Under the pieces are notes generated by a model. That model was not told the origin of the DNA. It made no database searches and saw nothing but the letters and a program-made list of their open reading frames with translations. 56,283 bases of DNA from assembly GCA_016176505.1 (NCBI GenBank), contig JACOXB010000007.1, positions 1-56,283 on the forward strand, in the 5' to 3' direction. Origin of the DNA: Candidatus Colwellbacteria bacterium (GTDB taxonomy: Bacteria > Patescibacteriota > Minisyncoccia > UBA6257 > Colwellbacteraceae). This document shows positions 1-52,641 of this stretch, piece after piece. Each line of letters begins with the position of its first letter. Positions within the stretch are counted from its first letter, which is position 1. Position numbers and translations under genes: made by a program.

Positions 1-170
1 GCGATGATGCCGCCGATAGCTAAGGCCCAGTTGTAAAAGCTGTTGATTTTTTCAGCCAGAGTGAGGCCAATGGTTTCCGGTTCTTCCTCAACAGCCAGAG
101 CAACGGAGAAGGAAAAAATAAAAATAAGGGTTGCGATAAGAATAAAATATTTTCTGTTTCTCTCGTTCAT
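1..170 (-). CDS. small secreted/membrane protein, partial (C-terminus lies beyond window start)
   Basis: ATG at 170-168 overlaps (ATGA) the stop of ORF 167..745. It translates as MNERNRKYFILIATLIFIFSFSVALAVEEEPETIGLTLAEKINSFYNWALAIGGII (signal/TM segment, then a second hydrophobic stretch). It is absent from the ORF track only because the window edge cuts it. Confidence 0.4.
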   Translation of the reverse strand, partial: MNERNRKYFILIATLIFIFSFSVALAVEEEPETIGLTLAEKINSFYNWALAIGGII

Positions 171-745
171 TCTTGAAAGTGAACTTCGCCCACCATTCGT
201 TCGCAGGTTGGAATTAATGTCCTATAGGCTTGGCCGATAATTTGGCAATTAACTTCTAAAATCTTTTCCCCAATGAAAAATTGGTTATTTAAAATATAGC
301 TATCCTCAATCAAGCCTCCTTCTTCAGTCGGGCCAGGTACCTCACGGCCTGCTTTAGTGACATAGCCGACACCCACTCTTCCGTCTCTTTCAACCCCTTG
401 GAACTTATTTGGTTCTGACTGCATCAGCTGGTCAGCGGTGATACCGAACAAATTTGGCCTCTCGTAAATACGGAGTTCAGCCGCTATCCCCTCGGCGAGA
501 AACGTGGCTTTCGCCTGCCCCTTCCCATCTTCAAAAACCGTGATTTCCCAAGCCTCGGGAACTTGAAAAGTGATATTAAAAACGGGGTGTTCTACGAACC
601 GCCAGCCTGCTTCGACCCCAGTAACATTAACGATTTCTGACTCGGGCATCGCCTCTTTCTCGCCCCGGAAAGCAAAATAAAGAAGCGCACCAAAGAGAAT
701 TAAAATAACGAGGACGATTGAAATAATCACTCCCCTTCTTTTCAT
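167..745 (-). CDS. membrane-anchored hypothetical protein
   Basis: ORF 167..769. The likely start is the internal MKRRGVIISIVLVILILFGALLYF (ATG 745-743), giving an N-terminal TM anchor. No catalytic motif recognised. Confidence 0.6.
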   Translation of the reverse strand: MKRRGVIISIVLVILILFGALLYFAFRGEKEAMPESEIVNVTGVEAGWRFVEHPVFNITFQVPEAWEITVFEDGKGQAKATFLAEGIAAELRIYERPNLFGITADQLMQSEPNKFQGVERDGRVGVGYVTKAGREVPGPTEEGGLIEDSYILNNQFFIGEKILEVNCQIIGQAYRTLIPTCERMVGEVHFQE

Positions 746-772
746 CACATTTATTATACAACGTCCCAACAG

Positions 773-806
773 AAAAACCCCTCCAACTATAGCCGAAGGG
801 GTTTTT
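773..806 (-). terminator. intrinsic terminator hairpin with A/T flanks
   Basis: AAAAACCCCT, 14-nt loop, AGGGGTTTTT, downstream of ORF 861..1547. Confidence 0.7.
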
Positions 807-818
807 CTTATAACTCGT

Positions 819-855
819 CGGGCTAATAAGCTAAAAGCTAATTAGCTATCGAGCT
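819..855. repeat. GCTAA-rich, stop-dense intergenic repeat, copy R1
   Basis: CGGGCTAATAAGCTAAAAGCTAATTAGCTATCGAGCT lies directly 3' of ORF 861..1547. Related copies are at 1621-1655 (inverted), 1661-1697 and 31558-31592. Confidence 0.6.
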
Positions 856-860
856 TAATA

Positions 861-1547
861 TTAGCGATTCTCAGTCTGGTCGCGGAATCGATCCACTAAA
901 TGACCAGCGTAATCTTTGCCACCTAAGCCAAAAGCAATACCGCCGGCTAGAGCGATCATCGCTACAAATCCGGTAACGAGGGAGTTAACGATCGGGGTCG
1001 CGATTCCCAGCTGAGAAAGAGCAGCCAGAAATCCGAAGACCACTACCGCCCAGTAGGTCAGAGTGCCGAGAAACTTCGCTGAATGAAGTTTGGCACTCGC
1101 GACCGATGCCTGAACCAATCGCCGCAGGAATCCGCCAAGAATAACTGCCGCAAGCATAATAAGTACCGCGACCGCTACCTGAGGAATATACAAGAGTACC
1201 GCCCGGAGGAAACTTGAAAGGGCATCAAATCGAAGAATATCAGCCGCGGCCAAGAAAAAGGCGATCACCACAAACCAGTAGGTTAGCCGGCCGAGAAAAC
1301 GGCCGGTGTTCATGGCCACCCCGCCTCTTTTGAAGTAACGATCTACCCCAGCTTTCGCAAGTAAGGCATCAAGCTTAACCGCCGCGATCACCCGCTCAAC
1401 CAACGCCCCCAATCCAGCCGCAACAATAAGGCCGATGACAAAAACGATTAAGGCGCCGAGGAGCAAGGGCAGGAAGCCCACAAAACCAATCCAGAGCTGC
1501 TGTAACGATGCCACTAAAACCTCTGTCCAAGATTGAACTACCATCAA
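861..1547 (-). CDS. multi-pass membrane protein (repeated TM-helix units; MscS-N-terminal-like, tentative)
   Basis: 228-aa ORF, highly hydrophobic, with several predicted TM helices in a repeated pattern. Confidence 0.7.
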   Translation of the reverse strand: MMVVQSWTEVLVASLQQLWIGFVGFLPLLLGALIVFVIGLIVAAGLGALVERVIAAVKLDALLAKAGVDRYFKRGGVAMNTGRFLGRLTYWFVVIAFFLAAADILRFDALSSFLRAVLLYIPQVAVAVLIMLAAVILGGFLRRLVQASVASAKLHSAKFLGTLTYWAVVVFGFLAALSQLGIATPIVNSLVTGFVAMIALAGGIAFGLGGKDYAGHLVDRFRDQTENR

Positions 1548-1620
1548 ACTAATTCTTAACTTCTAATTCCTTTATCGACCTTTTCATGCAAGATCTACCC
1601 TTTAATTATAGCAAAGTAGA

Positions 1621-1697
1621 GCTAGTTAGCCTGTTAGCAATTAGCTATTAGCCCGTTATTCCGAGCTAACTAGCTAACCGCTATCGAGCTCTCGAGC
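1621..1697. repeat. GCTAA-rich stop-dense repeats, copies R2 (inverted) and R3
   Basis: GCTAGTTAGCCTGTTAGCAATTAGCTATTAGCCCG and CCGAGCTAACTAGCTAACCGCTATCGAGCTCTCGAGC lie directly 3' of ORF 1701..4127. CTAACTAGCTAA has a stop in all three frames on both strands. Confidence 0.6.
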
Positions 1698-1700
1698 TGT

Positions 1701-4127
1701 TTATTGTCTAGGTAGAATTTCCCTGATTGAAGGGGCCACCACGGTAACTGAATCTGAGGCTTGACCCCCATCGTTTTGGCAAGTCAGGGTATAAAGAGTG
1801 GTGCCGCCAGGGGTAACCACTTGCTGACCCGAAGTGGGTTTCGAGCCATTCCAGTCAGAATCGCTTGGGCTTGCCGAAGCTGAACAAGAATCAGCATTAC
1901 TGGTTGACCAGGTTAAAGTGGCAACGCCACCCTGGTAAATCACGGTTGGGTAAGCATCAATATCAACTGTCGGTGGAACATCGCCGCCGCCACCGCCACC
2001 ACCGTCTCCGCCACCGCCGCCATCGTCGCCACTGTCTTCTGGCTCAGAAACATTAATAGTTACTCGGGCCTCTTCAGAGAAATTCTCTCTTTCAATAATC
2101 ACCTTAGCTGTATAGGTGCCGGCGCTTGAGTAGGTGACACCCGTACTCTTAGGGTTGGAATTTACGCCGTCGTATTTAGCATCCCAAGCGCCACAAACCT
2201 GAGCTGCTTCACTGACAGCAACTTTTGGATTATCGCAGTCTTTCCAGAAAGTGTAATTAATAGTACCCGTAGCGGTTCCACCCGCCTTGGCTCTTAAAGT
2301 TGTGCTCAAAGGCGCGTCGCCCGAAGTCGGATTGGCGCCGAGATTAGCTGTCAAGTGATGCTGCTGCTGCTGAACACTAACCGTTACAGAATCTGAAGCC
2401 GCGCCATTAGCGCCGGTACAATTTAAGGTATAAGTTTGATCTGCCGTAAGATTGCCGCTTGAATAATTACCCGAGGTTCCAGTCCAACCAGTTGGCGAAA
2501 CCGTACACGAGCTGACGTTGCTCGAGGACCAGCTAATCATAGCCGAAGTATTATAAGGGATAATAACCGGGCCATCAGAGCCATTAGCTTTAATATCGGC
2601 GCTTGGCGTAATCGGCGCATTAACATTAACGTTCACTGAGTCTGTGCAGGAAGAGCTCCCCGCCCCGGAACAAGTTAGAGTATATCCCTGACTTTGGGTT
2701 AAAGCGCCGGTTGATTGAGAACCCGAAGTCGCTTTTGAACCGCTCCAACTGCCAGAGGCAGTACAAGAAGTGGCGCCGGCTGAACTCCAAGAAAGAGTGG
2801 AAGATCCGCCTGAGGTAACCGAAGTCGGATTGGCATTAATATCAACCGTACAGCCAGTAACATTGCAGGTGGTTGACGCAGAGCAGGTTCCTCCAGCGCC
2901 ACTGCAACTTTGGGTATAACTTCGGCTTGAAGTTAAGGCGCCAGTATTCTGACTGCCCGAAGTACCGCTCCAAACAGTACTATTGGCGCTATTTGTCACC
3001 GAACAAGAAGCAGCGTTAGTGCTACTCCAGGAAACAGCGGCCGAATTACCAGTCGTAACCGAACTGGGATTGCAGTTAATAGAGCAGGTAGGAAGGGGCG
3101 AAGTTACGGTAACTGTTTCCGAGTCAGAACCAGACCCAACAGCGTTAGAGCAAGTAAGAGTGTAGGTCGTAGTTGTAGCGAGGGTACCGGTTGACTGTGA
3201 TCCTCCGGAAACCGACTTCGAGCCGCTCCAACCCCCAGAAGCAGTACAAGAAGTTGGGCTATTAGTAGTGGCCCAAGTAAGAGTACTTGAGTTACCAGAG
3301 ACAACTGAGGTAGGGCTAGCCGTGAGATTCACTGTCGGGGACTTAGGACATAACCCACCAGCCGTAATATTAACGCTGACACTATCGCTTCTCGTGCTAA
3401 ATCCGTTCGTGCACTGCATCCCGTAAGTCCTTGTAAATGGCGGTGGGTTAGGATTGTTGTCCTCTTGACCGGTTCTAGAATAACTTCCGGGGATATTTAC
3501 ATGGGTCCCTGGAGATGGCCACCAATCACTGTTAGCCCCGTTCTGAAAAGTGCAAGAGCCGCCAAATAGATACTGATTGTCCCAAGAAATAGTAAAGTCT
3601 TTGCAAGCCGGGGAAGAATTCGGCCCGCTAACATCAACTATTACATTCTGCTTGCAAGTGCCTGCGCCACTAGTTTGCGACCAGGTGTCATCAGCATTTT
3701 TCACCGCACAAGTTGTATCTTCTGTCCCTTTACACCAACAACTGGCATTGGGATTACAAGCCTGATTTACTCCGCCAGGATAACTAGCACAGGGATCCGA
3801 GGGTGGTGGTGGGCCGCCGCCGTTGCCGTCGCCGCCAACTAAGGTGCAGCCAAGATTCCCCCCGCCAGTGCACTGCCATGCTGGGATACCAGGTTTTGCG
3901 GTGGTCCCACACCAGTAACCACTACCGTCTGTGTGAGAATGAATATCTTGAGCTCCAGTACATTTATCTGGGTTACTAGGATAACAATCGCAACTGTATT
4001 GAGGGTCAACATCGTGAGCCTCAGTCGGCGGCGCCAGGAGTAATTGGAAGATAAAGTAAGAGGCTGCTAGAGATAAAGCGATGAGTAATACCCCTATTAA
4101 ATAATTTTTAGAAAAAGAGTGGGTCAT
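1701..4127 (-). CDS. large secreted/cell-surface repeat protein (Ig-like/PKD-like repeats)
   Basis: 808 aa with an N-terminal TM/signal segment and a Cys-rich N-terminal region. At least 6 tandem Ser/Thr/Gly-rich repeats of about 75 aa follow (NPTSV.SG.SSTLSWSS..A.SCTASG.WSGSK..GSQSTG.LT...YTLTC), then a PKD-like segment and a GGGGGDGGGGGGGD linker. Confidence 0.85.
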   Translation of the reverse strand: MTHSFSKNYLIGVLLIALSLAASYFIFQLLLAPPTEAHDVDPQYSCDCYPSNPDKCTGAQDIHSHTDGSGYWCGTTAKPGIPAWQCTGGGNLGCTLVGGDGNGGGPPPPSDPCASYPGGVNQACNPNASCWCKGTEDTTCAVKNADDTWSQTSGAGTCKQNVIVDVSGPNSSPACKDFTISWDNQYLFGGSCTFQNGANSDWWPSPGTHVNIPGSYSRTGQEDNNPNPPPFTRTYGMQCTNGFSTRSDSVSVNITAGGLCPKSPTVNLTASPTSVVSGNSSTLTWATTNSPTSCTASGGWSGSKSVSGGSQSTGTLATTTTYTLTCSNAVGSGSDSETVTVTSPLPTCSINCNPSSVTTGNSAAVSWSSTNAASCSVTNSANSTVWSGTSGSQNTGALTSSRSYTQSCSGAGGTCSASTTCNVTGCTVDINANPTSVTSGGSSTLSWSSAGATSCTASGSWSGSKATSGSQSTGALTQSQGYTLTCSGAGSSSCTDSVNVNVNAPITPSADIKANGSDGPVIIPYNTSAMISWSSSNVSSCTVSPTGWTGTSGNYSSGNLTADQTYTLNCTGANGAASDSVTVSVQQQQHHLTANLGANPTSGDAPLSTTLRAKAGGTATGTINYTFWKDCDNPKVAVSEAAQVCGAWDAKYDGVNSNPKSTGVTYSSAGTYTAKVIIERENFSEEARVTINVSEPEDSGDDGGGGGDGGGGGGGDVPPTVDIDAYPTVIYQGGVATLTWSTSNADSCSASASPSDSDWNGSKPTSGQQVVTPGGTTLYTLTCQNDGGQASDSVTVVAPSIREILPRQ

Positions 4128-4137
4128 CCCTCTTTAA

Positions 4138-4560
4138 TTATCGTGCATCAGGCGATGGGCCGATCGGAGAGACAGCGAGGTCTTCTTCGCGAATAATAGT
4201 ATTCGCTTTTATTGCCCCTCCCTCTACTTCTCCGACTACTCTTACTACCGCGCCAACCATCACTTCTTCTGGGTTAAAAGCAGTGATTGGTGCCGTATCG
4301 CTGGGTTTGAAAAGATAGGTGCCACTGTCGGTTTGGACTACCAACCGTTCGCCGTCGGCTTCCACAACCAGCTTGCCAGTAGTATTTTCAATAACCTTGC
4401 CCTTAAGAATAACGGTGATCTCTTCAATCGCCGGATGATCTGTTAACCCGAACAGAGTTACTGCTTCTTTTTTAGTTTTTATGTAAATACCAAGACCAGC
4501 AACGGCTGCCAGAATGAATACGACTAAGATTAATAGCACTATTTTTGACCCCTTGCTCAT
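4138..4560 (-). CDS. membrane-anchored hypothetical protein
   Basis: 140-aa ORF with an N-terminal TM anchor (IVLLILVVFILAAVAGLGIYI). A TATAAT box lies just upstream (about 4570-4580, minus strand). Confidence 0.7.
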   Translation of the reverse strand: MSKGSKIVLLILVVFILAAVAGLGIYIKTKKEAVTLFGLTDHPAIEEITVILKGKVIENTTGKLVVEADGERLVVQTDSGTYLFKPSDTAPITAFNPEEVMVGAVVRVVGEVEGGAIKANTIIREEDLAVSPIGPSPDAR

Positions 4561-4603
4561 ACTATTAATTATAGCAATCTGTATAAAAATAGGGTGTTAA
4601 TTT

Positions 4604-4646
4604 CTAAAAACGAGCAGCGCCTGCCCCCGGGACGGGGGCAGGCGCT
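4604..4646 (-). terminator. intrinsic terminator of GC-rich cassette G1
   Basis: Perfect 14-bp stem AGCGCCTGCCCCCG / CGGGGGCAGGCGCT with a 3-nt loop, followed on the minus strand by GCTCGTTTTTAG. It lies 10 nt after the stop of ORF 4657..5487. Confidence 0.8.
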
Positions 4647-4656
4647 CATCGAAGCC

Positions 4657-5487
4657 CTACCTTTGGGGAAGTAGGTAGGGGAAGAACTGGCGGAGTGCCC
4701 TGGTCTCATCGCCGTAGAAGTGAAGACCGTTTTCAGAGCCTGTCCAGGCACTGAACTCCAGGAGAACGTTGTAGTCCCGGAGCCCCGGAATCGGCAACTC
4801 TCTCGCGGGCTTGGTCACAACGGCTAGCACTTCACCTCGCCTGACCCACTCTCCTTGAGTCGGTCCGCTAGGGAAGTGGAGCGCCGGTCCGCTGACCCAA
4901 AGAACCAGACCATCCTTGAAGCCGTAACCGCCTTCGTAGACTGAACCGACGGTGATCCAATCGCTCTCCCAGCGCTGGATCGAGTGATCCGCGGCGAACC
5001 CGATGACGTACTGATCGCCATCGAATGGGACTCGGAGAACGGTTCCCTCCGGCAGGCGGAAGGCAACTCCCCAGGGGCGCCATCCCAACTCGCCTCGGTA
5101 GTACAGCTCTCCGAACCGCACCAGGCGCCCATCGGCGTAGAACTCCTTAGGCACCACCCGGATCCCCAATCCAGACGGTACCACTGGCGGAGGTGTCGTC
5201 GGCGTTGTGGTCGGCTCGGTTGTCGGAGATGTCGACGGGGAAGTCGACGGCTCGGTCGGGCCCACGCTCGGCGAAACCGAGGGCGAAGTCGTCACCCGTG
5301 GCTCCGGCTCCATCCTTACCGCGATGGCCCAAGTCGCGATAACCGCGACCAGAACCAAAACGATGAGGATGGCCAGGCTTCGCCGGAAGCGTCGCCGGTC
5401 CTTCTTCGGAGCTCGGGGTGGAACGTAGATCGGCGGCCAGGTGACATCCGGCCGCACGCGTGATGGCACCTTGGCCACCGTACTCAC
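4657..5487 (-). CDS. GC-rich cassette G1: membrane-anchored protein with Pro/Thr/Ser-rich linker, unknown function
   Basis: 276 aa, GTG start preceded by GGAAAGGAAGG. It has a basic N-terminus, a TM segment (LAILIVLVLVAVIATWAIAV), a PTS-rich linker and a C-terminal beta-rich domain of about 170 aa. GC is visibly higher than in the flanking genes. Confidence 0.75.
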   Translation of the reverse strand: MSTVAKVPSRVRPDVTWPPIYVPPRAPKKDRRRFRRSLAILIVLVLVAVIATWAIAVRMEPEPRVTTSPSVSPSVGPTEPSTSPSTSPTTEPTTTPTTPPPVVPSGLGIRVVPKEFYADGRLVRFGELYYRGELGWRPWGVAFRLPEGTVLRVPFDGDQYVIGFAADHSIQRWESDWITVGSVYEGGYGFKDGLVLWVSGPALHFPSGPTQGEWVRRGEVLAVVTKPARELPIPGLRDYNVLLEFSAWTGSENGLHFYGDETRALRQFFPYLLPQR

Positions 5488-5579
5488 CTTCCTTTCCTTC
5501 TCTGCTTATTCGGTTCTCAAAGTTCAGGCTCGCCTTGCCGGAGCCCAAGAAAACCGACACGACGGGCAATTCTAGCCCT

Positions 5580-5608
5580 ATTATACCCCATTCCCCGCCC
5601 TTTTTCAA
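5580..5608 (-). promoter_or_regulatory. sigma70-type promoter of G1 (TTGAAA-N17-TATAAT)
   Basis: The minus strand reads CTTGAAAAAGGGCGGGGAATGGGGTATAATAGGGCTAGAA. It is nearly identical to the G2 promoter at 7266-7293. Confidence 0.7.
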
Positions 5609-5639
5609 GGGCTGAAAAAGGACAGTCTAAGGAGATACC

Positions 5640-6926
5640 TTAACGGCGGCGAAGGATCGGAGACGCCGAGCGAACAATCCGCCGAACGGCTGGTATGTGT
5701 TTTGGGTTCCCGAAAGTGACTATATTAATCCCTGGCGTATTGATCATCCTTTTAGCGATCCGGATTGTCCGATCGTAGGACATGCGACGTATCTCATTAA
5801 AGATATCTTCAAAATTAGGGACTCGATTTTCAATCATATAGTAAGCGCCGATCTCACTGATAGTCTCGGCATCGGATTCGAAATCAATAAGCAAAGACTT
5901 AATCGCGCTGGCCTTAGTGATCTCGAAGCTGTTGCGTAGATAATCTTTGGAGTAATTTAATCCGTTTCCCTCGATAATGCGCCGTAGGGCCTTCTCAAGA
6001 TCGTTAGTATTATTGAAAATACCGTAAATAGAAAAAAAGACTATTTTCCCAGACCAATATAGAGTGCTCCCCACCCGATATGCCAACCCGTCTTCTTTAA
6101 TCGGTTGCAAAAGTTTATCTATTAAGCCGTTCGCTCTTTGAAGAGAATATCTGATCCTTGGGGTAGAAGCCCGCCATACCGGCACGGATATAAAAAGATA
6201 GGTTTGATTAATGCCTGTTTTTAAAAAATGTTGTACGCGGAACTGGCTAAAAGTTGTTTTGCGCTCCTTAACAAATGGTGGTTTTGGTTTATGGCGTTTA
6301 CCGAAAGCCTGATTAATAGACTTTAATGAAGTTTTATTTAAAGAAAAAGGGGCGGAAATAACTAGGCAGGCGTTACGAGGATGATAGTATCTGGCGTAAA
6401 TATTACGGATACGTTGAAGATTTAATTCCGATACAGCGCTTTTCCGTCCACCAATATCCCTAAAAACAGAGTTTTTTTCTAAAAATCTCACATCGACTAA
6501 ACGGTTAAAGGCCGTCCCGTCCGGATCGTCACCCGCCTCAGCTATTTCATTAATGATGCGGTTCTTCTCGGCCCTTACCATTTCTTCTTTAAAGTCTGGC
6601 TGAAAAAACATTTCTCCAAGAACTTGGGTTGTTTTAGCGAAATTCTCTGGGAGGACGGATACGTTATATTGTGTATAAACACGAAGTGTCTCCGCCCCTA
6701 TACTCGCTCCGATTTGCGGCGCCTCGAGACGAGGACGAGTAGACGCTACAATCAAGTGCTCAATGAGGTGGGCTATTCCTTCAATCGGTTCATTGGCGCC
6801 ACCGATTCTAACAAAAAGACCGATACCGATAGTATTGATTGTTGGTCTTTCGTGCCAAAAAACCTTCAAGCCATTTTTAAGAGTAATAGTCCTAAATCGG
6901 GGAATATAGTAAGCCTTTTGCTTCAT
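5640..6926 (-). CDS. M16 (pitrilysin) family zinc peptidase
   Basis: 428 aa with the inverted zinc motif HLIEH (HxxEH) near the N-terminus, in the typical M16 two-domain length range. Confidence 0.85.
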   Translation of the reverse strand: MKQKAYYIPRFRTITLKNGLKVFWHERPTINTIGIGLFVRIGGANEPIEGIAHLIEHLIVASTRPRLEAPQIGASIGAETLRVYTQYNVSVLPENFAKTTQVLGEMFFQPDFKEEMVRAEKNRIINEIAEAGDDPDGTAFNRLVDVRFLEKNSVFRDIGGRKSAVSELNLQRIRNIYARYYHPRNACLVISAPFSLNKTSLKSINQAFGKRHKPKPPFVKERKTTFSQFRVQHFLKTGINQTYLFISVPVWRASTPRIRYSLQRANGLIDKLLQPIKEDGLAYRVGSTLYWSGKIVFFSIYGIFNNTNDLEKALRRIIEGNGLNYSKDYLRNSFEITKASAIKSLLIDFESDAETISEIGAYYMIENRVPNFEDIFNEIRRMSYDRTIRIAKRMINTPGINIVTFGNPKHIPAVRRIVRSASPILRRR

Positions 6927-13004: not shown

Positions 13005-13020
13005 CAATAGGGATGATAAC

Positions 13021-13058
13021 AAAAAGAATGCTCCGACTTAAGTCGGAGCATTCTTTTT
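13021..13058. terminator. perfect 38-nt palindromic bidirectional terminator
   Basis: AAAAAGAATGCTCCGACTT | AAGTCGGAGCATTCTTTTT. Confidence 0.8.
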
Positions 13059-13075
13059 GTTCACTTCGCCTCAAC

Positions 13076-24034: not shown

Positions 24035-24084
24035 GCCCCCAAATAGGCCTTATTTAGGGGGTTTTTAGCTTTCTCCTCATCTTT

Positions 24085-24256
24085 GGGGTAAACACATAAA
24101 CGTCGATCGCATCCACTCGCTCCCCAGACACCCTCGGTTTCTGGCGGTCGCCTGACACAGCAGGCGACCTATTTTCCGACACGGGAGGAACCTTATACTT
24201 TCCTCCCGACCCCTCCTTCGGTTTCTGATTTACTCCTACGCATTTTAGGGGTAAAC
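24085..24256 (-). repeat. element E3: structured insert in the 3' end of the GT2 gene, bounded by GTTTACCCC repeats
   Basis: The 9-bp cores are at 24248-24256 and 24085-24093. The inner blocks GGGGTCGG, two hairpins, GCCAGAAACCGAGGGTGTCTGGGGAGCGAGTGGATGCGATCGACG are homologous to E2 (33818-33928). Confidence 0.7.
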
Positions 24257-25716
24257 CAGAAGCCTAGCCGAAATCTCCCCCCTAGCATCAACCGGGTTTG
24301 AGACTCGAGAGCCGGGATAGCGCCGAAAATAATTAAGGTAAAAGGCATTAGGGCCCACTGGATAAGATAAAGGAAGTAGTGGTGGGCGCGAAACCAATCA
24401 GGCTTGGGCGGCAAAAGCACAATGCCCAAGATAGCCGAGCTCACAATTCCAATTGAGGCAAAAGTTAAAATGGTTCGCGTAATCTCCGGTAAGCTGAAAG
24501 AAAGCAGGGTGTAATTAAACGCCTCACCGCCTAAAAAGAGTGGCAGCCAGCCAAGAGCAAAAATTAAAATGGCATTCGTGGCCCAGGAGTGAAAAGCTTC
24601 GATGGTATTGAAAATCCAGTAGATTTTTTTGCTTAAAAGAATTCTCCGGTTTCTCGAAAAGCCATAAAAAGTATAAGGCAGGTTTTCCACGCCCCAGCCC
24701 CAACGGCGCTGTTGGCGATAAATATTCCGCATAGTGCGCCAGAAAGTCGGCGCCACATTCGCATCCATTGAAACCGGGTAGAAAAGCGGCACGACCCGCC
24801 AGTCGCTGTCGTAATGAAGATAGCATTGCCAGAAAATCCGCGAGTCTTCCGAAACCACGTTCTTCTGCCAAAAGCCGATTTCGACCAAGGCTTTGAACGG
24901 CATTGAGTGGGAAGAAAAAGTAGTCAAGCGTTCGGGTCGCGACTGCTGCATCAAGTGCCAAAAAGTAGCTGATAAGGCAACGACCCTCGCAAAAATCGGC
25001 GCTTCATAAATGTTGTTATTAAAAAGCGGCACTGGCTGATAACTTGAGCGCTCGGGATGCTCGGCGGTCAAATATGAATAGGTCAGTCGGCCAAAATAAT
25101 CAGGTAAAATCTGGGTGTCAACATCAAAAACCGAAACCAAAATATTTTCATAAGGAATTTTTAGTTTATCAATAACCTCGCTTTTAACTTTTTCCGCGGC
25201 ATAAGCCTGATTCGAGCCTTTACCCGGGATTTCGTTAGGCAAATCAGCTGGGTGATAGACAACCAGAAAATGGGGGAACTCTCGGCCGAATTCGGCCTCG
25301 ATCCTTCGGGCCACCTCTTTAGTCGACTCGCCGCCCCGCTCTTCGGGCGCAAGCACAATAATGAATTTATCTTTGGGATAATTTATTCGACTGAGGCTCT
25401 CGAAAGTTTCTCTGACCACTTCGTAGGGCTCACCGAGCATCGGCAGAATAACAAGATGGTATATCCGATCCCAATCTACGAATTTATCCGAATGATCCGA
25501 AAGCTGTTTAAGCCAATCGATTTTTAGATTTCTCCTTACTTTTTTGAAAGAGGACCGAAGATGAAATGACAAAAAAAGAGTTTTGAAAAGCCAGTAAGTA
25601 TCGAAAAGAATAATAAAAATAGCTGCAGCAGTTGGGAAAAATCGCGCGGCAACCACCATTAAGACGAGCGTCAGCCAGGAGAGCGCGCCCGGGACAATCT
25701 CAAAAAAACGGAGCAT
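24193..25716 (-). CDS. family 2 glycosyltransferase, processive (cellulose synthase/PgaC-like), multi-TM
   Basis: It has the QRRW motif (YRQQRRWGWG), a DxD-type region, and N- and C-terminal TM helices. The start is set at the ATG overlapping the DoxX stop (TAATG at 25714-25718). The last 16 codons lie inside element E3. Confidence 0.85.
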   Translation of the reverse strand: MLRFFEIVPGALSWLTLVLMVVAARFFPTAAAIFIILFDTYWLFKTLFLSFHLRSSFKKVRRNLKIDWLKQLSDHSDKFVDWDRIYHLVILPMLGEPYEVVRETFESLSRINYPKDKFIIVLAPEERGGESTKEVARRIEAEFGREFPHFLVVYHPADLPNEIPGKGSNQAYAAEKVKSEVIDKLKIPYENILVSVFDVDTQILPDYFGRLTYSYLTAEHPERSSYQPVPLFNNNIYEAPIFARVVALSATFWHLMQQSRPERLTTFSSHSMPFKALVEIGFWQKNVVSEDSRIFWQCYLHYDSDWRVVPLFYPVSMDANVAPTFWRTMRNIYRQQRRWGWGVENLPYTFYGFSRNRRILLSKKIYWIFNTIEAFHSWATNAILIFALGWLPLFLGGEAFNYTLLSFSLPEITRTILTFASIGIVSSAILGIVLLPPKPDWFRAHHYFLYLIQWALMPFTLIIFGAIPALESQTRLMLGGRFRLGFWFTPKMRRSKSETEGGVGRKV

Positions 25717-31149: not shown

Positions 31150-31329
31150 GGCGCCCGCCAACTTATTGCCTATCGGGACCAGAATAATCCGGCTCCAGCG
31201 GCCGGATTTTCTTCCCCCTCGGCCTGCTCGCTCCGACTTAAGTCGGAGACCAAGCCGAGCTAGGCCTGCGGGATGTCCCGTACGGCAACAAGTTACCGGG
31301 CTTCCGAGATTAGTGGGCGATAAAGCCGG

Positions 31330-31368
31330 TCTCGCTTCGACCTGCCTGCCGGCAGGCAGGGATATTCT
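31330..31368 (+). repeat. 40-nt module with perfect 20-nt palindrome CCTGCCTGCCGGCAGGCAGG (copy A)
   Basis: CTCGCTTCGA-CCTGCCTGCCGGCAGGCAGG-GATATTCT. An inverted copy lies at 52603-52641. Confidence 0.65.
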
Positions 31369-33665: not shown

Positions 33666-33748
33666 GGAGGAGTCGCATAGCGGTATTGCAACGGATTGCT
33701 AATCCGTGGGGAGTAATCCCCTCGTGGGTTCGAATCCCACCTCCTCCG
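33666..33748 (+). tRNA. tRNA-Ser (GCT)
   Basis: GGAGGAGTCGCATAGCGGTATTGCAACGGATTGCTAATCCGTGGGGAGTAATCCCCTCGTGGGTTCGAATCCCACCTCCTCCG. It has a long variable arm. Confidence 0.9.
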
Positions 33749-33946
33749 CTAATACAAATTAAGCATGCCTGTGTGGTATGCTGAATTTGTATTTGGTTGG
33801 ATTCGAACGAGGGGTGGGTCGGAGGGGAAACCACCGGGTCCCCTCCGTCGAGGAAAACAGGGAGCCTGCCGTGCCAGGCTCCCGCCAGAAACCGAGGGTG
33901 TCTGGGGAGCGAGTGAATACGAGCGACGTTCAATCCCACCTCCTCC
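33749..33946 (+). repeat. element E2: structured insert plus second copy of the tRNA-Ser 3' end
   Basis: AATCCCACCTCCTCC occurs at 33733-33747 and again at 33932-33946. The insert has TTGTATTTGG + GGTTGGATTCGAAC (13/14 inverted copy of the tRNA T-arm), GGGTCGG, three hairpins and GGGAGCGAGTGAATACGAGCGACG. Confidence 0.7.
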
Positions 33947-34034
33947 ACCCGAAATACTTTTTATCGGAAGACCCGAGTGCCTAGGTATAGGGTACGACCT
34001 CAAGCCACCAAACCCCTTAACAGGAAGTGCATCC

Positions 34035-34799
34035 CTATTCAACTGCCTTGGCTTGGTTGAAAACCGACTTAAAGTGCTGATGAACCAAACCATATGCCAC
34101 ACCTAAATGAAGAGGCATAACAAGTGCTGGTTTGGTGCCTAAGTCCTGTAGAGAGTGATCGATTACCCAGCCTTTCTTTGCTGTGAATAAATATCTACCA
34201 TGGAGTACGGCTCCGGGAGATTGACGAAGCTCGACCAAACCACCCTTTTCCTTTCTGAACTTTTTATAGGCCCGAAGAAATTGGTCTTCTTTACCGCTGC
34301 GTCCTAAACGAGAAGTCAGTATTTGGATAGGAACGCTGACTTCAGCTAAGGCGTCGAGGGTTTCCTCAGAAACATAGGGGTCAATTACCAGCAAGAACTC
34401 ATCTGCGCTGTGTTGTAGAAAAACCTTAAGCTGACGCTGCGTGGACCATGGTGTACCAGGACTAACAAAGCTGGGGCTATCGTGAGACAAGGAAGGCTTT
34501 AATAACAGTTGTCCATTCCTTTTCAAATGGAAACGACGAACTCCGCCAATGGTTCTATATTCTACTGGCGCGCGCAAGCGGGAAAGAACACGGTAAATTG
34601 TTGGGGCATTTAGTTCTTCGCCTTGCTCACGCGCAACACGCGCAATTGTCGAAGCAGTAACCCAACCCTTACTTCCTCCAGCTGAACTCAATGCGTTTAA
34701 AACCGTAAGCTCGCTCGCTTTAAGATTGTTCAGCGGCTTGGAGGTCATAGAGAACAAAATCTTCGCCGGTGCGCGACAGCCTGAAGTAACCTGGATCAT
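34035..34799 (-). CDS. winged-helix + PLD-like (HKD-variant) domain protein, unknown function
   Basis: N-terminal wHTH-like segment (LTVLNALSSAGGSKGWVTASTIARVAREQG...TIYRVLSRL). The C-terminal LHGRYLFTAKKGWVIDHSLQDLG resembles an HxK(R)-type PLD motif (tentative). An alternative start is MTSKP at 34748. Confidence 0.7.
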   Translation of the reverse strand: MIQVTSGCRAPAKILFSMTSKPLNNLKASELTVLNALSSAGGSKGWVTASTIARVAREQGEELNAPTIYRVLSRLRAPVEYRTIGGVRRFHLKRNGQLLLKPSLSHDSPSFVSPGTPWSTQRQLKVFLQHSADEFLLVIDPYVSEETLDALAEVSVPIQILTSRLGRSGKEDQFLRAYKKFRKEKGGLVELRQSPGAVLHGRYLFTAKKGWVIDHSLQDLGTKPALVMPLHLGVAYGLVHQHFKSVFNQAKAVE

Positions 34800-35217
34800 C
34801 TTTCACAGACTCCAGGCGGAGGTACTTTTTTGACGAAAGATCTCGCATGGACTGACTGATTTGCCTGGGGGGACGAAGATTAGCACGCCTGTAGAGCTCA
34901 ACGACATCGCGCTCATTTGCCTTTTCCTTACTTTCGTGTTCCTTCGCCCAATAAAGCAAAGAGGGGATTTCAGCTACCGCTCCTTTTGGATTAAGCTTTG
35001 CCACAAAATCACGAAGGTTTTTACCAGTACTGGCGGAGTGAGATTTTCCAGTTTTTTGAGTATCGCCGTGTCCCCGTGGTTCTTTTCCAGGCTCGTTTGA
35101 ATCCTGTAGAAGATGTGCGAGCGCAGTCTGTTGTAAGTGGTCAGGAATCTTAAGCTCCTTGAGCGACTCCATCGCCTCTCTAAGCTGCTTATATTGTGGT
35201 GAATCTTTTATGGACAT
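34720..35217 (-). CDS. hypothetical protein with C-terminal winged-helix-like domain
   Basis: 165 aa with an N-terminal helix, a disordered basic linker and a C-terminal VVELYRRANLRPPRQISQSMRDLSSKKYLRLESVKDDPGYFRLSRTGEDFV. It overlaps the downstream ORF. Confidence 0.7.
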   Translation of the reverse strand: MSIKDSPQYKQLREAMESLKELKIPDHLQQTALAHLLQDSNEPGKEPRGHGDTQKTGKSHSASTGKNLRDFVAKLNPKGAVAEIPSLLYWAKEHESKEKANERDVVELYRRANLRPPRQISQSMRDLSSKKYLRLESVKDDPGYFRLSRTGEDFVLYDLQAAEQS

Positions 35218-35251: not shown

Positions 35252-35453
35252 GAAATTCTTAAGAAGCTCCACTTCGGGCCGTTTTTGAGGGTTCTGTGGT
35301 AGCGACCCGAGTACCTCAGTGAGTGCAGCTCAGATGCCCTAAAACATCCTTGTGGAGCCTAGCAACTGGGTGCTAATCCCGAAGCGGCCCGCCAGTTAGG
35401 AAACGAAGTTATTGGCTCGCAAAATAAAACAGGTCAGCCTATACTTGAAAATA

Positions 35454-37501: not shown

Positions 37502-37615
37502 AACGCGGGGATTGTTCCCGATTTACCCAAGAGTGAAGTTTAGTTAAACTAAACAGTTGGATAGAACGGTCCGACTTGAGTCGGACAAGTCGCAGGCTTG
37601 CCCCCACCCCTATTT

Positions 37616-47452: not shown

Positions 47453-48352
47453 TCAATTAAACCCCAATCTAACTAAATTTCTCTTTTCGCGAGATAGGGC
47501 CTCTTTGGTTTTGGCGGCCAAGTTAAGCCGCAAACCGGGTTCGGTTTCGGCGCGCCGCAAATTAAGCCAAAAATCTTTACCCGTAACGCTTATGTCGTCC
47601 AGTTTTGAAATTCTTCCCCTGCCCTGGTAAAATTTCTCGACTCGAGCAAGGGTCCGGGTTTTATCTTTAACCCGGAATGTCTTTTCGCGAATTCGATAGT
47701 AATTGGGCAATTCCCTACGCCATTCTGAAAGCGAAATCCCTCTTTTCTTCAGACGACTGACTTCATTTAAAACAAAAACGGCAGCGAGAATCCCGGAATC
47801 AGCATGGTAAAAATCCTTAAAGTAATAGTGGGAGGCATGTTCAATTGCGAATTCGGCCCGATGGCGCAACATCATTTTTTTAACCGCATAGTGACCAGAT
47901 TCAGTTTCAATAACTTTCAGCCCTTGCTTTAACCAATCAATTACTGCCTTACCGGCTGAGGTTGAAACAAGATACGGCGGTCGAAACTTTGGCGAGAGAA
48001 GTAGAAAAATTAAAATCGGGTCAATTTCCTTGCCCTTATCATCAACAAAAACCGCTCGGTCGCCGTCAGCATCAAAAACCACCCCCAAATCAGCTTTTTC
48101 TTTAACTACCGTCTCTTTTAATTGTCTTGTCGCGCCGCGGGCTAAGGGACTCGGACCATGAGCCGGAAAATTGCCATCAGGTTTTTCGTTGATAAAAGTT
48201 GTTTTTAGTTTTTTGTTATTAGTTATAAGTTGTCGCAAGATGCGGCCGGTGGTGCCGTTTGAGCAATCAAAAATTACCTTGACTGGTGCTTCCGGTTTTA
48301 AAAACTTTTTTAAGAAATTTACATAAACCCTTACGTACGAGTTACTAGTCAT
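47453..48352 (-). CDS. phosphomannomutase/phosphoglucomutase, domains II-IV only (downstream half of a split gene)
   Basis: 299 aa with the metal-binding loop FDADGDR. There is no SD, and the ATG follows TAA TAA CTG in frame after the N-terminal fragment. Confidence 0.75.
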   Translation of the reverse strand: MTSNSYVRVYVNFLKKFLKPEAPVKVIFDCSNGTTGRILRQLITNNKKLKTTFINEKPDGNFPAHGPSPLARGATRQLKETVVKEKADLGVVFDADGDRAVFVDDKGKEIDPILIFLLLSPKFRPPYLVSTSAGKAVIDWLKQGLKVIETESGHYAVKKMMLRHRAEFAIEHASHYYFKDFYHADSGILAAVFVLNEVSRLKKRGISLSEWRRELPNYYRIREKTFRVKDKTRTLARVEKFYQGRGRISKLDDISVTGKDFWLNLRRAETEPGLRLNLAAKTKEALSREKRNLVRLGFN

Positions 48353-48358
48353 CAGTTA

Positions 48359-48736
48359 TTAGTTATTAGTTAGCGCTTGCTCAATTTCGTCTCCACTGAT
48401 TGGTACCGCCTTAGGCCCGGCCACTTTCAAACCATTCCATTCTTTAGGATTATGCGAAGCTGTGACCATAATCCCGCCGCCGGCTTTTAACTTATTAACC
48501 AGAAAATAAAGCATTGGTGTCGTAATCATCCCTGCCCTAATAGCCCTTGAACCCAGAACCTTGAGACACGCCCTATATAAGGCTGGCGAGCTTTTGCGGG
48601 CATCATGGCCAACCACGATTTTCCCCTTTTCTAAAATTTCTCGGCTCAAGCCGCTTATAATTTTCTGGGTTATGACCTCGTTAATTTCACCTGGATAGCG
48701 GCCCCGAATATCATAAGCGCCAAAAATGTCTCGCAT
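48359..48736 (-). CDS. phosphomannomutase/phosphoglucomutase, domain I only (upstream half of a split gene)
   Basis: The start is set at MRDIFGAYDIRG. It has the catalytic phosphoserine loop TASHNP and ends at TAA TAA inside an ACTAATA-type heptamer repeat. Confidence 0.75.
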   Translation of the reverse strand: MRDIFGAYDIRGRYPGEINEVITQKIISGLSREILEKGKIVVGHDARKSSPALYRACLKVLGSRAIRAGMITTPMLYFLVNKLKAGGGIMVTASHNPKEWNGLKVAGPKAVPISGDEIEQALTNN

Positions 48737-48749
48737 TAAAGTTATTGTA

Positions 48750-48787
48750 ACCCCCACGCCTAATTGCTCGCAATTAGGTGTGGGGGT
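48750..48787. promoter_or_regulatory. 18-bp inverted repeat in the 64-bp divergent pmm/ftsK intergenic region
   Basis: ACCCCCACGCCTAATTGC TC GCAATTAGGTGTGGGGGT (17/18 complementary). Confidence 0.5.
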
Positions 48788-48800
48788 AAAATTAAGCTGA

Positions 48801-50885
48801 ATGGCCAAGAGAAAGCGCCGCCGAAAAGGAGGGAGACCGCAAAAAAATAATCCCAAAGTCAGGTCCTCGCTTCATCCGGGTATCAGGACCAGCGTCTTTG
48901 GCATTATTGCTTTAGGTTTTGCAGTCATTTTTATGCTGGCCGGTTTTGCCAAGGCCGGGCCAGCGGGTGAAATTATTTTTAACCTCCTTGATCGACTCCT
49001 CGGCTGGGGTTATTTCTCTGTACCGCTTGTTCTCGTCTTAATCGGCATGGGCCTCTTGACTCATCCGGAGCGAGCCGTCATCAGTTCCTCGCTTATCGGC
49101 GCTGTTATCTTTATTAGTGCCGGTCTTAGTATGATTGATATTCTCGCGCCAGAGAAAGCCGGTTCGGCCGGTATTCTTTTCGGTAATATTGAAAATCTTC
49201 TTGGCTATGCTGGCTCGTTTGTTTTCGATCTAATGATTCTTTTAGCCTCTCTCTTGGTTGTGCTTAATATCCCTCTGACCTTAAAAATAAAGTGGCCAAA
49301 GCGAGAAAAAGGAGTTACGCCTCCTGCTAAAGAAGAAAAACTAGTGATTACGCCAGAGCCGACCCTAGAAATTCCGACCGAGGAAGAAACACTGACTAAA
49401 GAAGAAGCGAAAATAACAAAAACCACCGAAACTCCTGCGCTGGTGTCTACTGGCGAGTCAATAATTAAGACTCGCCATTACACTCCGCCGCCTTTAGGTC
49501 TTTTGAAAACCGCGACTGAAAAACCAACAGCCGGCGACCTCCGGGTTAATGCCACCACGATTAAACGAACTCTTGAAAGTTTCGGCATCCCGGTTGAGAT
49601 GGGCGAAATTACGATCGGCCCCAAAGTCACTCGTTATGCCCTGAAGCCGGCTGAAGGAATTAAGCTTTCGCGGATTCTTGCCTTGAACCAGGATTTGAGT
49701 CTGGCCTTGGCGGCTCATCCGATCCGAATTGAAGCGCCAATCCCCGGCCGAGCCTTAGTCGGCATTGAAATTCCGAATAAAGTAGCCAGCCTCGTCCGGC
49801 TCGGAGCTTTACTCGGTTATCCCGAGTTTAAAAAAACAAGTAATCTCGGTTTTCCCCTTGGCCGCGATGTTTCGGGCGAACCAATTTTTGTAAGCCTTAG
49901 TAAAATGCCTCATCTTTTAGTCGCCGGTTCAACTGGCAGCGGCAAGTCCATTGCCATCCATTCACTCCTTATTTCTCTCTTATATAAAAACTCGCCCGAA
50001 ACTCTCCGTCTGATCTTGATTGATCCTAAGAGAGTCGAGCTCTCGGTTTACGAGGATATCCCTCATCTTTTGACACCCGTCATCACGAACGGCAAAAAAG
50101 CGATCGCCGCTCTCCGCTTCGCCATTCAAGAAATGGAGAATCGCTACGAACTTCTGCTTAAGGCTGGCAAGCGCGATATCCTGGGTTACAATCTCGGCCG
50201 GCAAAAAGATTTTATGCCCTACCTAGTTATTGTGATTGATGAACTAGCTGATTTAATGGCTGCTTTTGGCCGGGAAATCGAGGCCTCCGTAGTCCGTTTG
50301 GCTCAGATGGCTCGCGCCACCGGCATCCATCTCGTTGTTTCAACTCAACGGCCATCGGTTGAAGTTATTACTGGTCTAATTAAGGCGAACATTACCTCGA
50401 GGGTGGCACTTCAGGTGGCGAGCCAGGTTGATTCCCGCACCATTCTTGACACTGGCGGGGCCGATAAACTCTTGGGCGGCGGGGACATGCTTTTTATCTC
50501 AGCCGAGCTTTCAAAACCTAAACGAATTCAGGGCGGCTATATTGGCGAGGATGAGATTAATGCGGTCACTGGCTTTATTAGAAAAGAAAATCCGATCGAA
50601 GAAGAAGAGGCCGAACTGGAAATGCAGTTATCCCGAGGACTGGAAGGCGCGCCCGGCGCTCATTGGGAAGCTGATTTTAACGAAGAAATTGATGATGAAC
50701 TTTATGAAGACGCGCTTCAAGTTGTAAGAGAAGCTAAAAAAGCCTCAGCCTCGCTTCTCCAGCGACGCTTAAAAATCGGCTACGCCAGGGCCGCGAGACT
50801 GCTTGATATAATGGAGGAGCAGGGCTTAATCGGCCCGGCTCGCGGAGCCCTGCCCCGGGAAATTTTCTCAAAAAACGAGGAGTGA
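48801..50885 (+). CDS. ftsK: DNA translocase FtsK
   Basis: 694 aa with a basic N-terminus, 4 TM helices, a linker, a motor domain with Walker A (GSTGSGKS) and a C-terminal gamma wHTH. Confidence 0.9.
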   Translation: MAKRKRRRKGGRPQKNNPKVRSSLHPGIRTSVFGIIALGFAVIFMLAGFAKAGPAGEIIFNLLDRLLGWGYFSVPLVLVLIGMGLLTHPERAVISSSLIGAVIFISAGLSMIDILAPEKAGSAGILFGNIENLLGYAGSFVFDLMILLASLLVVLNIPLTLKIKWPKREKGVTPPAKEEKLVITPEPTLEIPTEEETLTKEEAKITKTTETPALVSTGESIIKTRHYTPPPLGLLKTATEKPTAGDLRVNATTIKRTLESFGIPVEMGEITIGPKVTRYALKPAEGIKLSRILALNQDLSLALAAHPIRIEAPIPGRALVGIEIPNKVASLVRLGALLGYPEFKKTSNLGFPLGRDVSGEPIFVSLSKMPHLLVAGSTGSGKSIAIHSLLISLLYKNSPETLRLILIDPKRVELSVYEDIPHLLTPVITNGKKAIAALRFAIQEMENRYELLLKAGKRDILGYNLGRQKDFMPYLVIVIDELADLMAAFGREIEASVVRLAQMARATGIHLVVSTQRPSVEVITGLIKANITSRVALQVASQVDSRTILDTGGADKLLGGGDMLFISAELSKPKRIQGGYIGEDEINAVTGFIRKENPIEEEEAELEMQLSRGLEGAPGAHWEADFNEEIDDELYEDALQVVREAKKASASLLQRRLKIGYARAARLLDIMEEQGLIGPARGALPREIFSKNEE

Positions 50886-52602: not shown

Positions 52603-52641
52603 AAGAACATCCCTGCCTGCCGGCAGGCAGGTCGGAGCGAG
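52603..52641 (-). repeat. 40-nt module with CCTGCCTGCCGGCAGGCAGG palindrome (copy B, inverted relative to 31330-31368)
   Basis: The minus strand reads CCTCGCTCCGA-CCTGCCTGCCGGCAGGCAGG-GATGTTCT. Confidence 0.65.

Follow-up and report, generated by a model that had tools for sequence, protein, structure and literature searches.

The stretch of DNA analyzed here (hereafter the window) comprises 56,283 nucleotides (nt) from a Candidatus Colwellbacteria bacterium. It carries a tRNA-Ser(GCT) gene that is followed by a small structured element of 180 nt, which we call E2 (33749-33927), and then by a second copy of the tRNA 3' end (33928-33946). E2 belongs to a family of small insertion elements that is found across the Patescibacteria. 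The members carry no protein-coding gene, and we named the core of this family R1. The tRNA-Ser(GCT) copy in the window is intact, and its CCA end is not encoded. In the list below, DR1 and DR2 are the two direct repeats of the tRNA 3' end, X' is an arm that is antisense to the target gene, and loci fetched from other contigs are designated by L numbers.

33666..33748, + strand: tRNA-Ser(GCT), the target gene (ARAGORN; Rfam tRNA model, 59.8 bits)
33728..33747, + strand: DR1, GTTCGAATCCCACCTCCTCC, consisting of the T-loop and the 3' strands of the T-stem and acceptor stem of the working tRNA
33749..33794, + strand: trailer and intrinsic-terminator-like hairpin, both borne by the element (terminator scoring and fold prediction)
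33795..33808, + strand: 5' arm X', GGTTGGATTCGAAC, antisense of the target from G53 to the T-stem 3' strand
33809..33819, + strand: J1, a purine-rich joiner with the family consensus GGGAAAGGGGU (alignments)
33820..33847, + strand: hairpin H1, CGGAGGGG...CCCCTCCG, with the stem GGAGGGG/CCCCTCC (fold prediction and covariation)
33848..33859, + strand: joiner J2, with a conserved GGA (alignments)
33860..33883, + strand: extra hairpin GGGAGCCTG/CAGGCTCCC, an optional insertion in J2 (fold prediction)
33885..33905, + strand: hairpin H2, CCAGAAACC GAG GGTGTCTGG (CCAGA../..TCTGG), with a conserved apical AACC...GGKU
33906..33927, + strand: hairpin H3, G-GA-GC-GA-GU-GAAU-AC-GA-GC-GA-C (motif scans and covariation)
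33928..33946, + strand: DR2, the displaced and decaying original tRNA 3' end (repeat search and alignment)
33947..33980, + strand: ancestral tRNA-Ser trailer, ACCCGAAATACTTTTTATCGGAAGACCCGAGTG (alignment with L093 and L035)

All of the E2 features listed in an earlier model-generated reading of the sequence (the original prediction) are present at the positions given there. The DR1 sequence GTTCGAATCCCACCTCCTCC recurs at 33928-33946 as GTTC-AATCCCACCTCCTCC, with one T-loop base missing. The 15-mer AATCCCACCTCCTCC is present exactly twice in the 56 kb, at 33733 and 33932, and the chance expectation for an exact 15-mer repeat is approximately 1e-4. The terminator-like hairpin is AT-rich, with an outer stem formed by AATACAAATT (33751-33760) and AATTTGTATT (33784-33793) and an inner stem formed by AGCATGCC and TGGTATGCT (33762-33769/33774-33782). 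It is the midpoint of a long imperfect palindrome that spans from DR1 to the inverted arm, and most family members have a terminator hairpin at the equivalent position. X' (GGTTGGATTCGAAC) is the reverse complement of GTTCGAATCCCACC at 13 of 14 positions and serves as the 5' strand of a closing helix, P1, whose 3' strand is the first 13 nt of DR2.

The remaining parts follow in order. GGGTCGG is present after the inverted arm, the terminal GGGAGCGAGTGAATACGAGCGACG is present at 33905-33928, and all of the E2 hairpins are predicted to fold. H3, with its two tandem G.A/A.G mismatches, shows the highest conservation in the family. The minimum-free-energy fold of E2 also pairs the G-rich J1 with the acceptor strand, a pairing that is absent in other copies and that we therefore regard as a coincidence.

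We located relatives of this locus through IF-2, the gene that neighbors tRNA-Ser. In L093, whose IF-2 is 62% identical, tRNA-Ser(GCT) is followed directly by GCCAAGACAATTTTTTATCGGCATGACCCGAGTG, and the site is empty. In the window, the homologue of the L093 trailer, ACCCGAAATACTTTTTATCGGAAGACCCGAGTG, is found only after DR2, and DR1 is followed by unrelated sequence, a non-native trailer (GCTAATAC) that differs from the native trailer of the relatives in alignments. Because the L093 trailer directly follows the tRNA, DR2 and its flank represent the ancestral tRNA end; the original 3' end and its native trailer have been displaced 199 nt downstream of DR1. The original prediction had noted the duplication of the tRNA 3' end, and the empty site in L093 shows that this repeat marks an insertion.

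These alignments show that E2 was inserted into the 3' end of tRNA-Ser(GCT), and by the same comparison the inserted part runs from a crossover inside the repeat up to 33927. The tRNA remains whole because DR1, a copy of its 3' end, precedes the insert. The two changes in DR2 (the lost T-loop base and a change of the discriminator from G to A) fit a released copy, as expected.

The R1 family and its shared fold

To define the family, a covariance model (R1) was built from 22 hand-checked copies, and it yielded 77 matches (57 of them distinct) in Patescibacteria contigs, from 64 sources. Genome, metagenome, and viral contig collections were also scanned for a conserved 24-mer, GGGAGCGARTGRANNNGANCGACG, which some of the R1 model matches do not carry in exact form; these scans placed the motif almost exclusively in contigs of Patescibacteria. 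The genome collection has 40 stretches with the 24-mer, approximately 27 of which are in Patescibacteria metagenome-assembled genomes (Colwell-, Jorgensen-, Lipton-, and Saccharibacteria, Microgenomatus, and Paceibacterota). The other 13 or so are in Streptomyces and other high-GC genomes, where they lie within coding sequence and lack the rest of the core, and we attribute them to chance. In the metagenome collection, 48 stretches have the 24-mer, and some of these are likewise chance matches in high-GC coding sequence. A viral origin was considered and set aside, since the viral contig scan gave a single chance match in a high-GC coding region. The family can be dense, as in the Colwellbacteria contig L015, where four R1 copies lie behind four different tRNAs within 4 kb.

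The original prediction had proposed that E2 has the same structured core as two other places in the window, E1 and E3. The single R1 model matches exactly these three places (E values of 1e-31, 1e-12, and 1e-9). The two sister copies are as follows.

17206..17349, + strand: E1, a minimal form behind tRNA-Arg(TCG), with the exact 20-nt repeat TCCCTCCGGGCGCGCTAAAT (R1 model, 126 bits)
24078..24256, - strand: E3, in the 3' end of a family-2 glycosyltransferase open reading frame (ORF) (R1 model and domain match)

The E3 repeat corresponds to codons for FTPKMRR, duplicated with synonymous differences, and the 5' part of E3 is also an inverted copy of its local target. The extra hairpin in J2 is common to E2 and E3, whereas E1 lacks it. 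The similarity between E2 and E3, given in the original prediction as 47 nearly identical nt, was confirmed: positions 33883-33915 of E2 are identical over 33 nt to 24114-24146 of E3 on the minus strand (0 of 100 shuffles), and the similarity spans 118 nt at 77%. The glycosyltransferase ORF at E3 reads into the element (window 24193-24260, minus strand) and acquires a new C-terminal tail of 13 codons. In L084 (2620-2760), a glycosyltransferase gains a tail of approximately 40 codons from R1. At both places, the native tail persists as a remnant in DR2.

In each copy, the parts come in the order DR1, usually an intrinsic terminator, the antisense arm X', the core, and DR2. The R1 core is approximately 110-150 nt and forms a four-way junction on the + strand that is closed by X' and the start of DR2. 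The junction helices are P1 (X' with the start of DR2), H1, H2 (with an AACC...GGUU apex), and H3, which has the family consensus G-GA-GC-GA-RU-NNNN-AY-GA-GC-GA-C and the two tandem G.A/A.G mismatches. The joiners are invariant and purine-rich, and the H1 loops are often of the GNRA type (GGGA, GAGA, GGAA).

Covariation was assessed on the 57 distinct copies in an alignment fitted to model R1. The proposed partners form standard pairs in 90% of cells compared to 36-48% when the partners are slid by 1-3 columns, 28 of the 34 pairs are changed on both sides, and none of 500 shuffles attained such values. An independent MAFFT alignment of the seed gave 89% paired cells versus 31-49% when slid, with double changes in 19 pairs. 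Double changes are found in 7 of the 9 pairs of H1, and the purine/pyrimidine (R/Y) pair of H3 covaries (GC in 26 copies, AU in 23). The original prediction had proposed a shared fold and had named a lack of structural support as the outcome that would speak against it. Covariation supports the fold, with the amendment that the inverted arm and DR2, as the closing helix, belong to it as well.

Across H1 to H3, there are 38 G.U/U.G wobbles and 7 A.C/C.A mismatches, an excess from which it follows that the structure belongs to the + strand. This bias and the GNRA-type loops together make RNA the likelier form. In our reading, the fold would act as a single-stranded nucleic acid, more likely RNA, with single-stranded DNA of the same strand as the alternative.

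Known RNA families did not account for R1. With Rfam 15, the whole window matches only tRNAs at the gathering threshold, and searches of E2 and E1 at E <= 10 gave nothing credible, including among omega RNA/HEARO, group I and II introns, HDV-like and other ribozymes, and integrase-associated motifs. A permuted tmRNA was rejected: the match (E = 0.14) scored 17 bits against a gathering score of 47 and was driven by the T-arm, and ARAGORN reported no tmRNA. A hepatitis delta virus (HDV)-like ribozyme, suggested by a stretch resembling GCGAAUGG, was rejected on inspection because the helix order does not fit the nested double pseudoknot. A nonexhaustive search of the published literature found no description of an R1-type element. 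Within the limits of that search, and because R1 fails a defining test of each known family with which it was compared here and below, we rate it as a new kind of element. Its core is a new, well-supported structured motif that is ready for modeling and searching.

Arms, repeats, and target genes

The layout of arms and targets was analyzed on 54 distinct copies, and in all of them X' is complementary to the local gene. Pairing between arm and target extends over runs of 12-20 nt. The direct repeats are exact over 10-24 nt and are spaced 120-250 nt apart. The inner ends of X' and DR2 map to one target coordinate, which is G53/T54 in tRNAs; for protein-gene targets, the two inner ends agree within 1-2 nt.

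At least 20 tRNA species are targeted (Leu, Arg, Ser, Gln, Glu, Asp, Tyr, Gly, Met, Lys, Thr, Pro, Phe, and others). Among protein genes, the rplK 3' end is targeted in L002, L016, and L056 and probably also in L069, a glycosyltransferase gene is targeted in E3, L084/L088, and L030, an rpmG-like gene is targeted in L060, and further coding sequences are targeted as well.

The match of X' is better to DR1 (median exact run, approximately 12 nt) than to DR2 (approximately 6-7 nt). The spacer between DR1 and X' is usually a hairpin resembling a bidirectional terminator, and its sequence varies by copy. DR1, spacer, and X' together make up a single long, imperfect palindrome in which the acceptor 3' strand is largely unrepresented.

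In integrons, attC sites carry R''/R' core sites (RYYYAAC and GTTRRRY) that close an imperfect hairpin. The tRNA-targeted R1 copies end ...GAAC and their DR2 starts GTTC..., solely on account of the T-loop, and the protein-gene copies L002 and L084 do not have GAAC/GTTC ends.

Occupancy of the same sites in relatives

The original prediction had suggested that tRNA-Ser(GCT) may be an insertion hot spot and that a trailer conserved in all relatives would speak against insertion. Occupancy of the site in fact varies among relatives. The closest relative is represented by L090 and L059, which lie on the same contig and have an IF-2 that is 81% identical. In L090 (5440-5840, minus strand), the tRNA-Ser(GCT) site holds an ORF of 96 residues for a GIY-YIG protein, flanked by GAATCCCACCTCCTCCGC, the same repeat as at E2. 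This cassette has an 8-nt inverted arm, GGTGGGAT, approximately 26 nt before DR2 and has no R1 core. In L035, an island that spans at least 6.9 kb is closed by an R1 core together with a 3' fragment of tRNA-Ser, and its cargo includes a type I restriction subunit and a ParB-methylase; the native trailer is the same and again follows DR2. With the serine recombinase beside the same tRNA in L093, these cases support the designation of the site as a hot spot.

The neighborhood in L093 was noted separately. There, genes for a large serine recombinase, a terminase large subunit (GpA), and a ParB-methylase adjoin tRNA-Ser(GCT) in positions 1-5716. This region is probably a prophage, and no R1 copy was found in it.

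Other tRNAs also differ in occupancy between the window and its relatives. An R1 copy lies behind tRNA-Leu(TAA) in L090/L059, and that tRNA is empty in the window. Conversely, in L001, which is syntenic with the window at 9-19 kb, the tRNA-Arg(TCG) that carries E1 in the window is empty. At L001 4176-4610, tRNA-Pro(CGG) has two tandem inserts with three copies of TTCCCAGCGGCCCGAC, none of which are present in the window. The first of these inserts has a different GC-rich core (...GAGGAGCGCGGCGGCGCGACGAGAGG...) and possibly represents a second family of the same plan; the second is a truncated R1.

A further cargo-bearing form is found in L076 (850-5290; the same as L068), where tRNA-Leu(GAG) and an R1 end enclose 4.3 kb of restriction-modification cargo of the HincII type. 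The genes of this island encode a HincII-type endonuclease, a methylase, a helix-turn-helix (HTH) regulator, and a HARE-HTH protein. Its inverted repeats are at least 130 nt (patchy, up to approximately 300 nt) and include the spacer/terminator hairpin and X'.

Search for a mobilizing enzyme

E1, E2, and E3 have no ORF of their own. We surveyed the domains of all window ORFs of at least 100 amino acids and, by Pfam, those of 142 nonredundant ORFs around R1 copies. No transposase, reverse transcriptase, or integrase domain was found in the window ORFs, and none of these recurs among the 142 neighbors, in which no mobility family was found. Pfam domains of TnpA (Y1 HUH) and of TnpB/IscB are absent from the window ORFs and do not recur in the neighbors, and the same is true of DEDD recombinase genes. 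An all-versus-all comparison of the neighbors showed recurrence only within syntenic housekeeping clusters.

The cargo forms were examined in the same way, and neither L035 nor L076 has a transposase, reverse transcriptase, or integrase domain. A protein shared by the cargo forms was rejected as a candidate because the ORFs next to the core are unrelated between the two forms and lack NCBIfam matches. The GIY-YIG protein of L090 was likewise rejected as a general partner because it has no homologue in the window or in the other fetched loci.

Possible mechanisms of spread

The best reading of these data is that E2-type elements are nonautonomous mobile elements, with a mechanism that we infer. 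We favor, at a rough probability of 0.45, a scheme in which the fold is a handle for an enzyme encoded elsewhere in the genome and X' picks the site by base pairing. The fold would be recognized in cis by this enzyme, and X' would select the insertion site through pairing with the target. By analogy, the pairing principle would be that of the guide/cleavage-site pairing of IS200/IS605 ends and of transposon-end-derived guide RNAs. Homologous recombination would probably contribute to spread between strains as well; the tRNA would provide the left arm of homology, and DR2 would be a right arm that travels with the element. Programmed targeting is the simplest account because one core is found in more than 20 gene ends, with matching arms and the same end coordinate.

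Several observations weigh against this scheme. The stronger match of X' to DR1 and the palindrome could reflect an origin by DNA fold-back rather than a selected guide, and in the L076 cargo form the palindrome becomes inverted repeats of at least 130 nt. The R1 core is not needed for repeat formation, since the L090 cassette has a repeat without a core. The similarity of the E2 and E3 cores could stem from gene conversion rather than recent retargeting. Furthermore, because no partner enzyme was found, the central mobilization step is inferred, and transcription of the core is only putative, given that the interval from the terminator hairpin to X' offers no place for a promoter.

A more specific version of the targeting scheme seems rather unlikely to us. 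According to this version, R1 would be a protein-less cassette that encodes a natural programmable guide. Its 5' antisense arm would read the target, its conserved four-way-junction scaffold would recruit a nickase/reverse transcriptase, HUH enzyme, or recombinase that is encoded elsewhere, and its 3' target-identical tail would prime or anchor copying. Engineered prime-editing guide RNAs have a closely similar layout. If this version is true, rewriting the two arms could direct insertion into any gene 3' end. Also considered as mechanisms were integron attC recombination, a folded attP like that of CTX phage, rolling-hairpin replication, and target-primed reverse transcription.

The alternative that best survives, although we think it somewhat unlikely, is that the element is a cassette with no transposition chemistry of its own that depends for its spread on DNA uptake and RecA recombination, for which the conserved tRNA and DR2 would supply the arms. 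R1 would then be cargo, a small RNA with some function of its own, and X' would merely supply its closing stem. The foreign trailer after DR1 and the continuity of DR2 with the native trailer are consistent with this, as are the variable repeat length (10 to 24 nt) and the sharing of one layout by unrelated cargos (the GIY-YIG ORF and restriction-modification systems). RecA is encoded in the window, and DprA is among the neighbors. Restriction-modification insertions with long variable target duplications, long inverted repeats, and no mobility genes have been documented, mostly in naturally competent bacteria (PMC2853133). However, recombination leaves unexplained why one core is found in more than 20 targets with an antisense arm that ends at the coordinate of DR2, and 15-20 nt would be very little homology for RecA to use on the right side.

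The other three alternatives are weaker than both targeting and recombination. It is improbable that R1 is the integrase-less remnant of a tRNA-integrating island or prophage, in which DR1 and DR2 would be attL and attR, the core would be attP-adjacent sequence, and a related integrase would act in trans, much as for the cis-mobilizable elements that derive from integrative conjugative elements. Such integration is classically recognized by direct repeats of a tRNA 3' end (reviewed in PMC2853133), and the cargo-bearing forms L035 and L076 and the serine recombinase and phage genes beside tRNA-Ser in L093 point in the same direction. Nevertheless, no integrase was found in 54 distinct copies or in either cargo form, and the probable L093 prophage has no R1 copy. 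More than 20 att sequences with one core would demand as many integrase specificities, and the covariation, G.U bias, and target-matching antisense arm are unlike an attP arm region.

A self-cleaving or self-processing RNA is also quite doubtful. In such a ribozyme or retroelement, X' and the flanking target would build the active fold, and copies would arise by way of RNA, whether as a unit-length molecule (linear or circular) delimited by the repeats or in target-primed reverse transcription with the 3' tail as primer-binding site. The RNA-type fold with its invariant purine-rich joiners suits this idea, as does the variable repeat length, and a 5' antisense arm with a 3' sense tail would pair with both target strands. 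A precedent is provided by R2, where element sequence pairs with the upstream target in the ribozyme (PMC3414825). On the other hand, there is no Rfam ribozyme match even at E <= 10, the helix order on inspection misfits the HDV double pseudoknot, and reverse transcriptases are absent from the window and do not recur in the vicinity of copies. The trailer of DR1 is non-native in E2 and L090, and for this reason a simple target-site duplication is also disfavored.

Lastly, a nonmobile RNA kept by the cell for tRNA-linked processing, stability, or regulation is very improbable: it would suit the abundance of copies behind tRNAs in certain genomes (L015 has four within 4 kb) and the strong conservation of sequence and structure, but presence differs at the same tRNA between close relatives, the core is also found at protein-gene 3' ends where it alters the C terminus (E3, L084), and the duplicated, decaying gene ends have no role.

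Relation to known elements

R1 elements resemble tRNA-integrating islands, prophages, and cis-mobilizable elements in that they are inserted in the 3' part of a tRNA gene that is rebuilt, leaving direct repeats of the 3' end. Tandem accretion (L001) and cargo forms with defense genes are further points in common with the islands. In contrast to these islands, R1 copies have no integrase, are 120-250 nt, and show more than 20 repeat sequences for one core. They also have an antisense copy of the target, a covarying single-strand fold, and targets at protein-gene 3' ends.

Other likenesses are to elements with structured ends. As in IS200/IS605 ends, their miniature derivatives (PATEs), and the guide RNAs derived from such ends (omega RNA of TnpB/IscB), R1 is nonautonomous, is specific in strand and orientation, and is structured just inside its termini. 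Further common points are that a segment within the element pairs with flanking target across the foot of the terminal structure and that the structured RNA is continuous with the flanking target. However, the R1 pairing extends over 12-20 nt compared to 4-5 for IS200/IS605, and R1 has repeats of 10-24 nt where IS200/IS605, which inserts next to a target of 4-5 nt, has none. Omega RNA also differs in that no complementary arm sequesters its guide.

If R1 specifies its target as we propose, it would share RNA-DNA pairing by a mobile element with the bridge (seek) RNAs of IS110/IS1111 and with TIGR-Tas, which has been reported from parasitic bacteria including Patescibacteria (PMC12045711). Bridge and TIGR RNAs have two noncomplementary guide halves in internal loops and an adjacent gene for a DEDD recombinase or a Nop-domain protein. 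The R1 arms, by contrast, are complementary to each other over the same target segment (P1), and no such gene is nearby. The 5' HDV-like ribozyme of R2, in which 28S sequences help to build the active fold, has a segment that is complementary to the upstream target and pairs within the junction RNA. R1 differs from R2 in its helix order, its lack of an Rfam HDV match and of a reverse transcriptase, its bacterial host, and the rebuilding of the target gene.

A miniature inverted-repeat transposable element (MITE) of a DDE transposon has family-constant terminal inverted repeats and a short target-site duplication of fixed length. The R1 arms instead differ per copy according to the local target, and the repeat length ranges over 10-24 nt. 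Finally, L076 and L035 resemble the restriction-modification insertions described by Furuta, Abe, and Kobayashi in 2010 (PMC2853133) in having a duplicated target and no mobility genes, and L076 also shares their long inverted repeats. Those insertions have no structured core or antisense arm and are not tied to gene 3' ends, and their target duplications exceed 30 bp compared to approximately 13-20 nt in L076.

If R1 is a mobile element without an enzyme of its own, it would explain many odd tRNA trailers, duplicated tRNA 3' halves, and extended C termini in Patescibacteria. This group makes up a large share of bacterial diversity, and R1 is common in it. The element marks gene 3' ends as harmless insertion points, which restriction-modification systems and a GIY-YIG nuclease gene exploit in like manner. 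If the antisense arm truly chooses the site, R1 would be a compact insertion system programmed by base pairing, of relevance to mobile-element evolution and to genome-writing tools.

Downstream operon and other repeats in the window

A two-ORF operon lies downstream of E2 on the minus strand (34035-34799 and 34720-35217). The original prediction had labeled it 'wHTH/PLD-like', a label that we could not confirm since neither ORF has a Pfam or NCBIfam match; the first has a winged-helix-like N terminus by eye. The operon is not part of E2 because it lies outside DR2 and no third copy of the tRNA end follows it. It is bracketed by GACCCGAGTGCC (33968-33979) and GACCCGAGTACC (35305-35316), whose counterparts in L093 are only 20 nt apart in the tRNA-Ser trailer, which hints that the operon may be a separate insertion. 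The neighborhood as a whole is variable, given that the stretch from tRNA-Ser to NUDIX/MgtE differs between the window and L090.

Three further observations concern other parts of the window. A 38-nt palindromic repeat with CTGCCTGCCGGCAGGCAGG is found at 31331-31368 and 52604-52641 (95% complementarity), and relatives of it are inserted inside the R1 cores of L069 and L077. This repeat has the appearance of a small mobile palindrome in its own right. Phosphoglucomutase is split on the minus strand into an ORF for domain I (48359-48856) and one for domains II/III (47453-48352), with an AT-rich direct repeat at the junction whose copies are 140 nt apart (48201-48236 and 48341-48376). This split could be due to a frameshift, an insertion, or an assembly artifact. 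An identical 19-nt palindrome, GCTCCGACTTAAGTCGGAGC, is found at 13018-13061 and 31230-31248, with a related copy at 37568-37586, and is probably a shared terminator or a small repeat.

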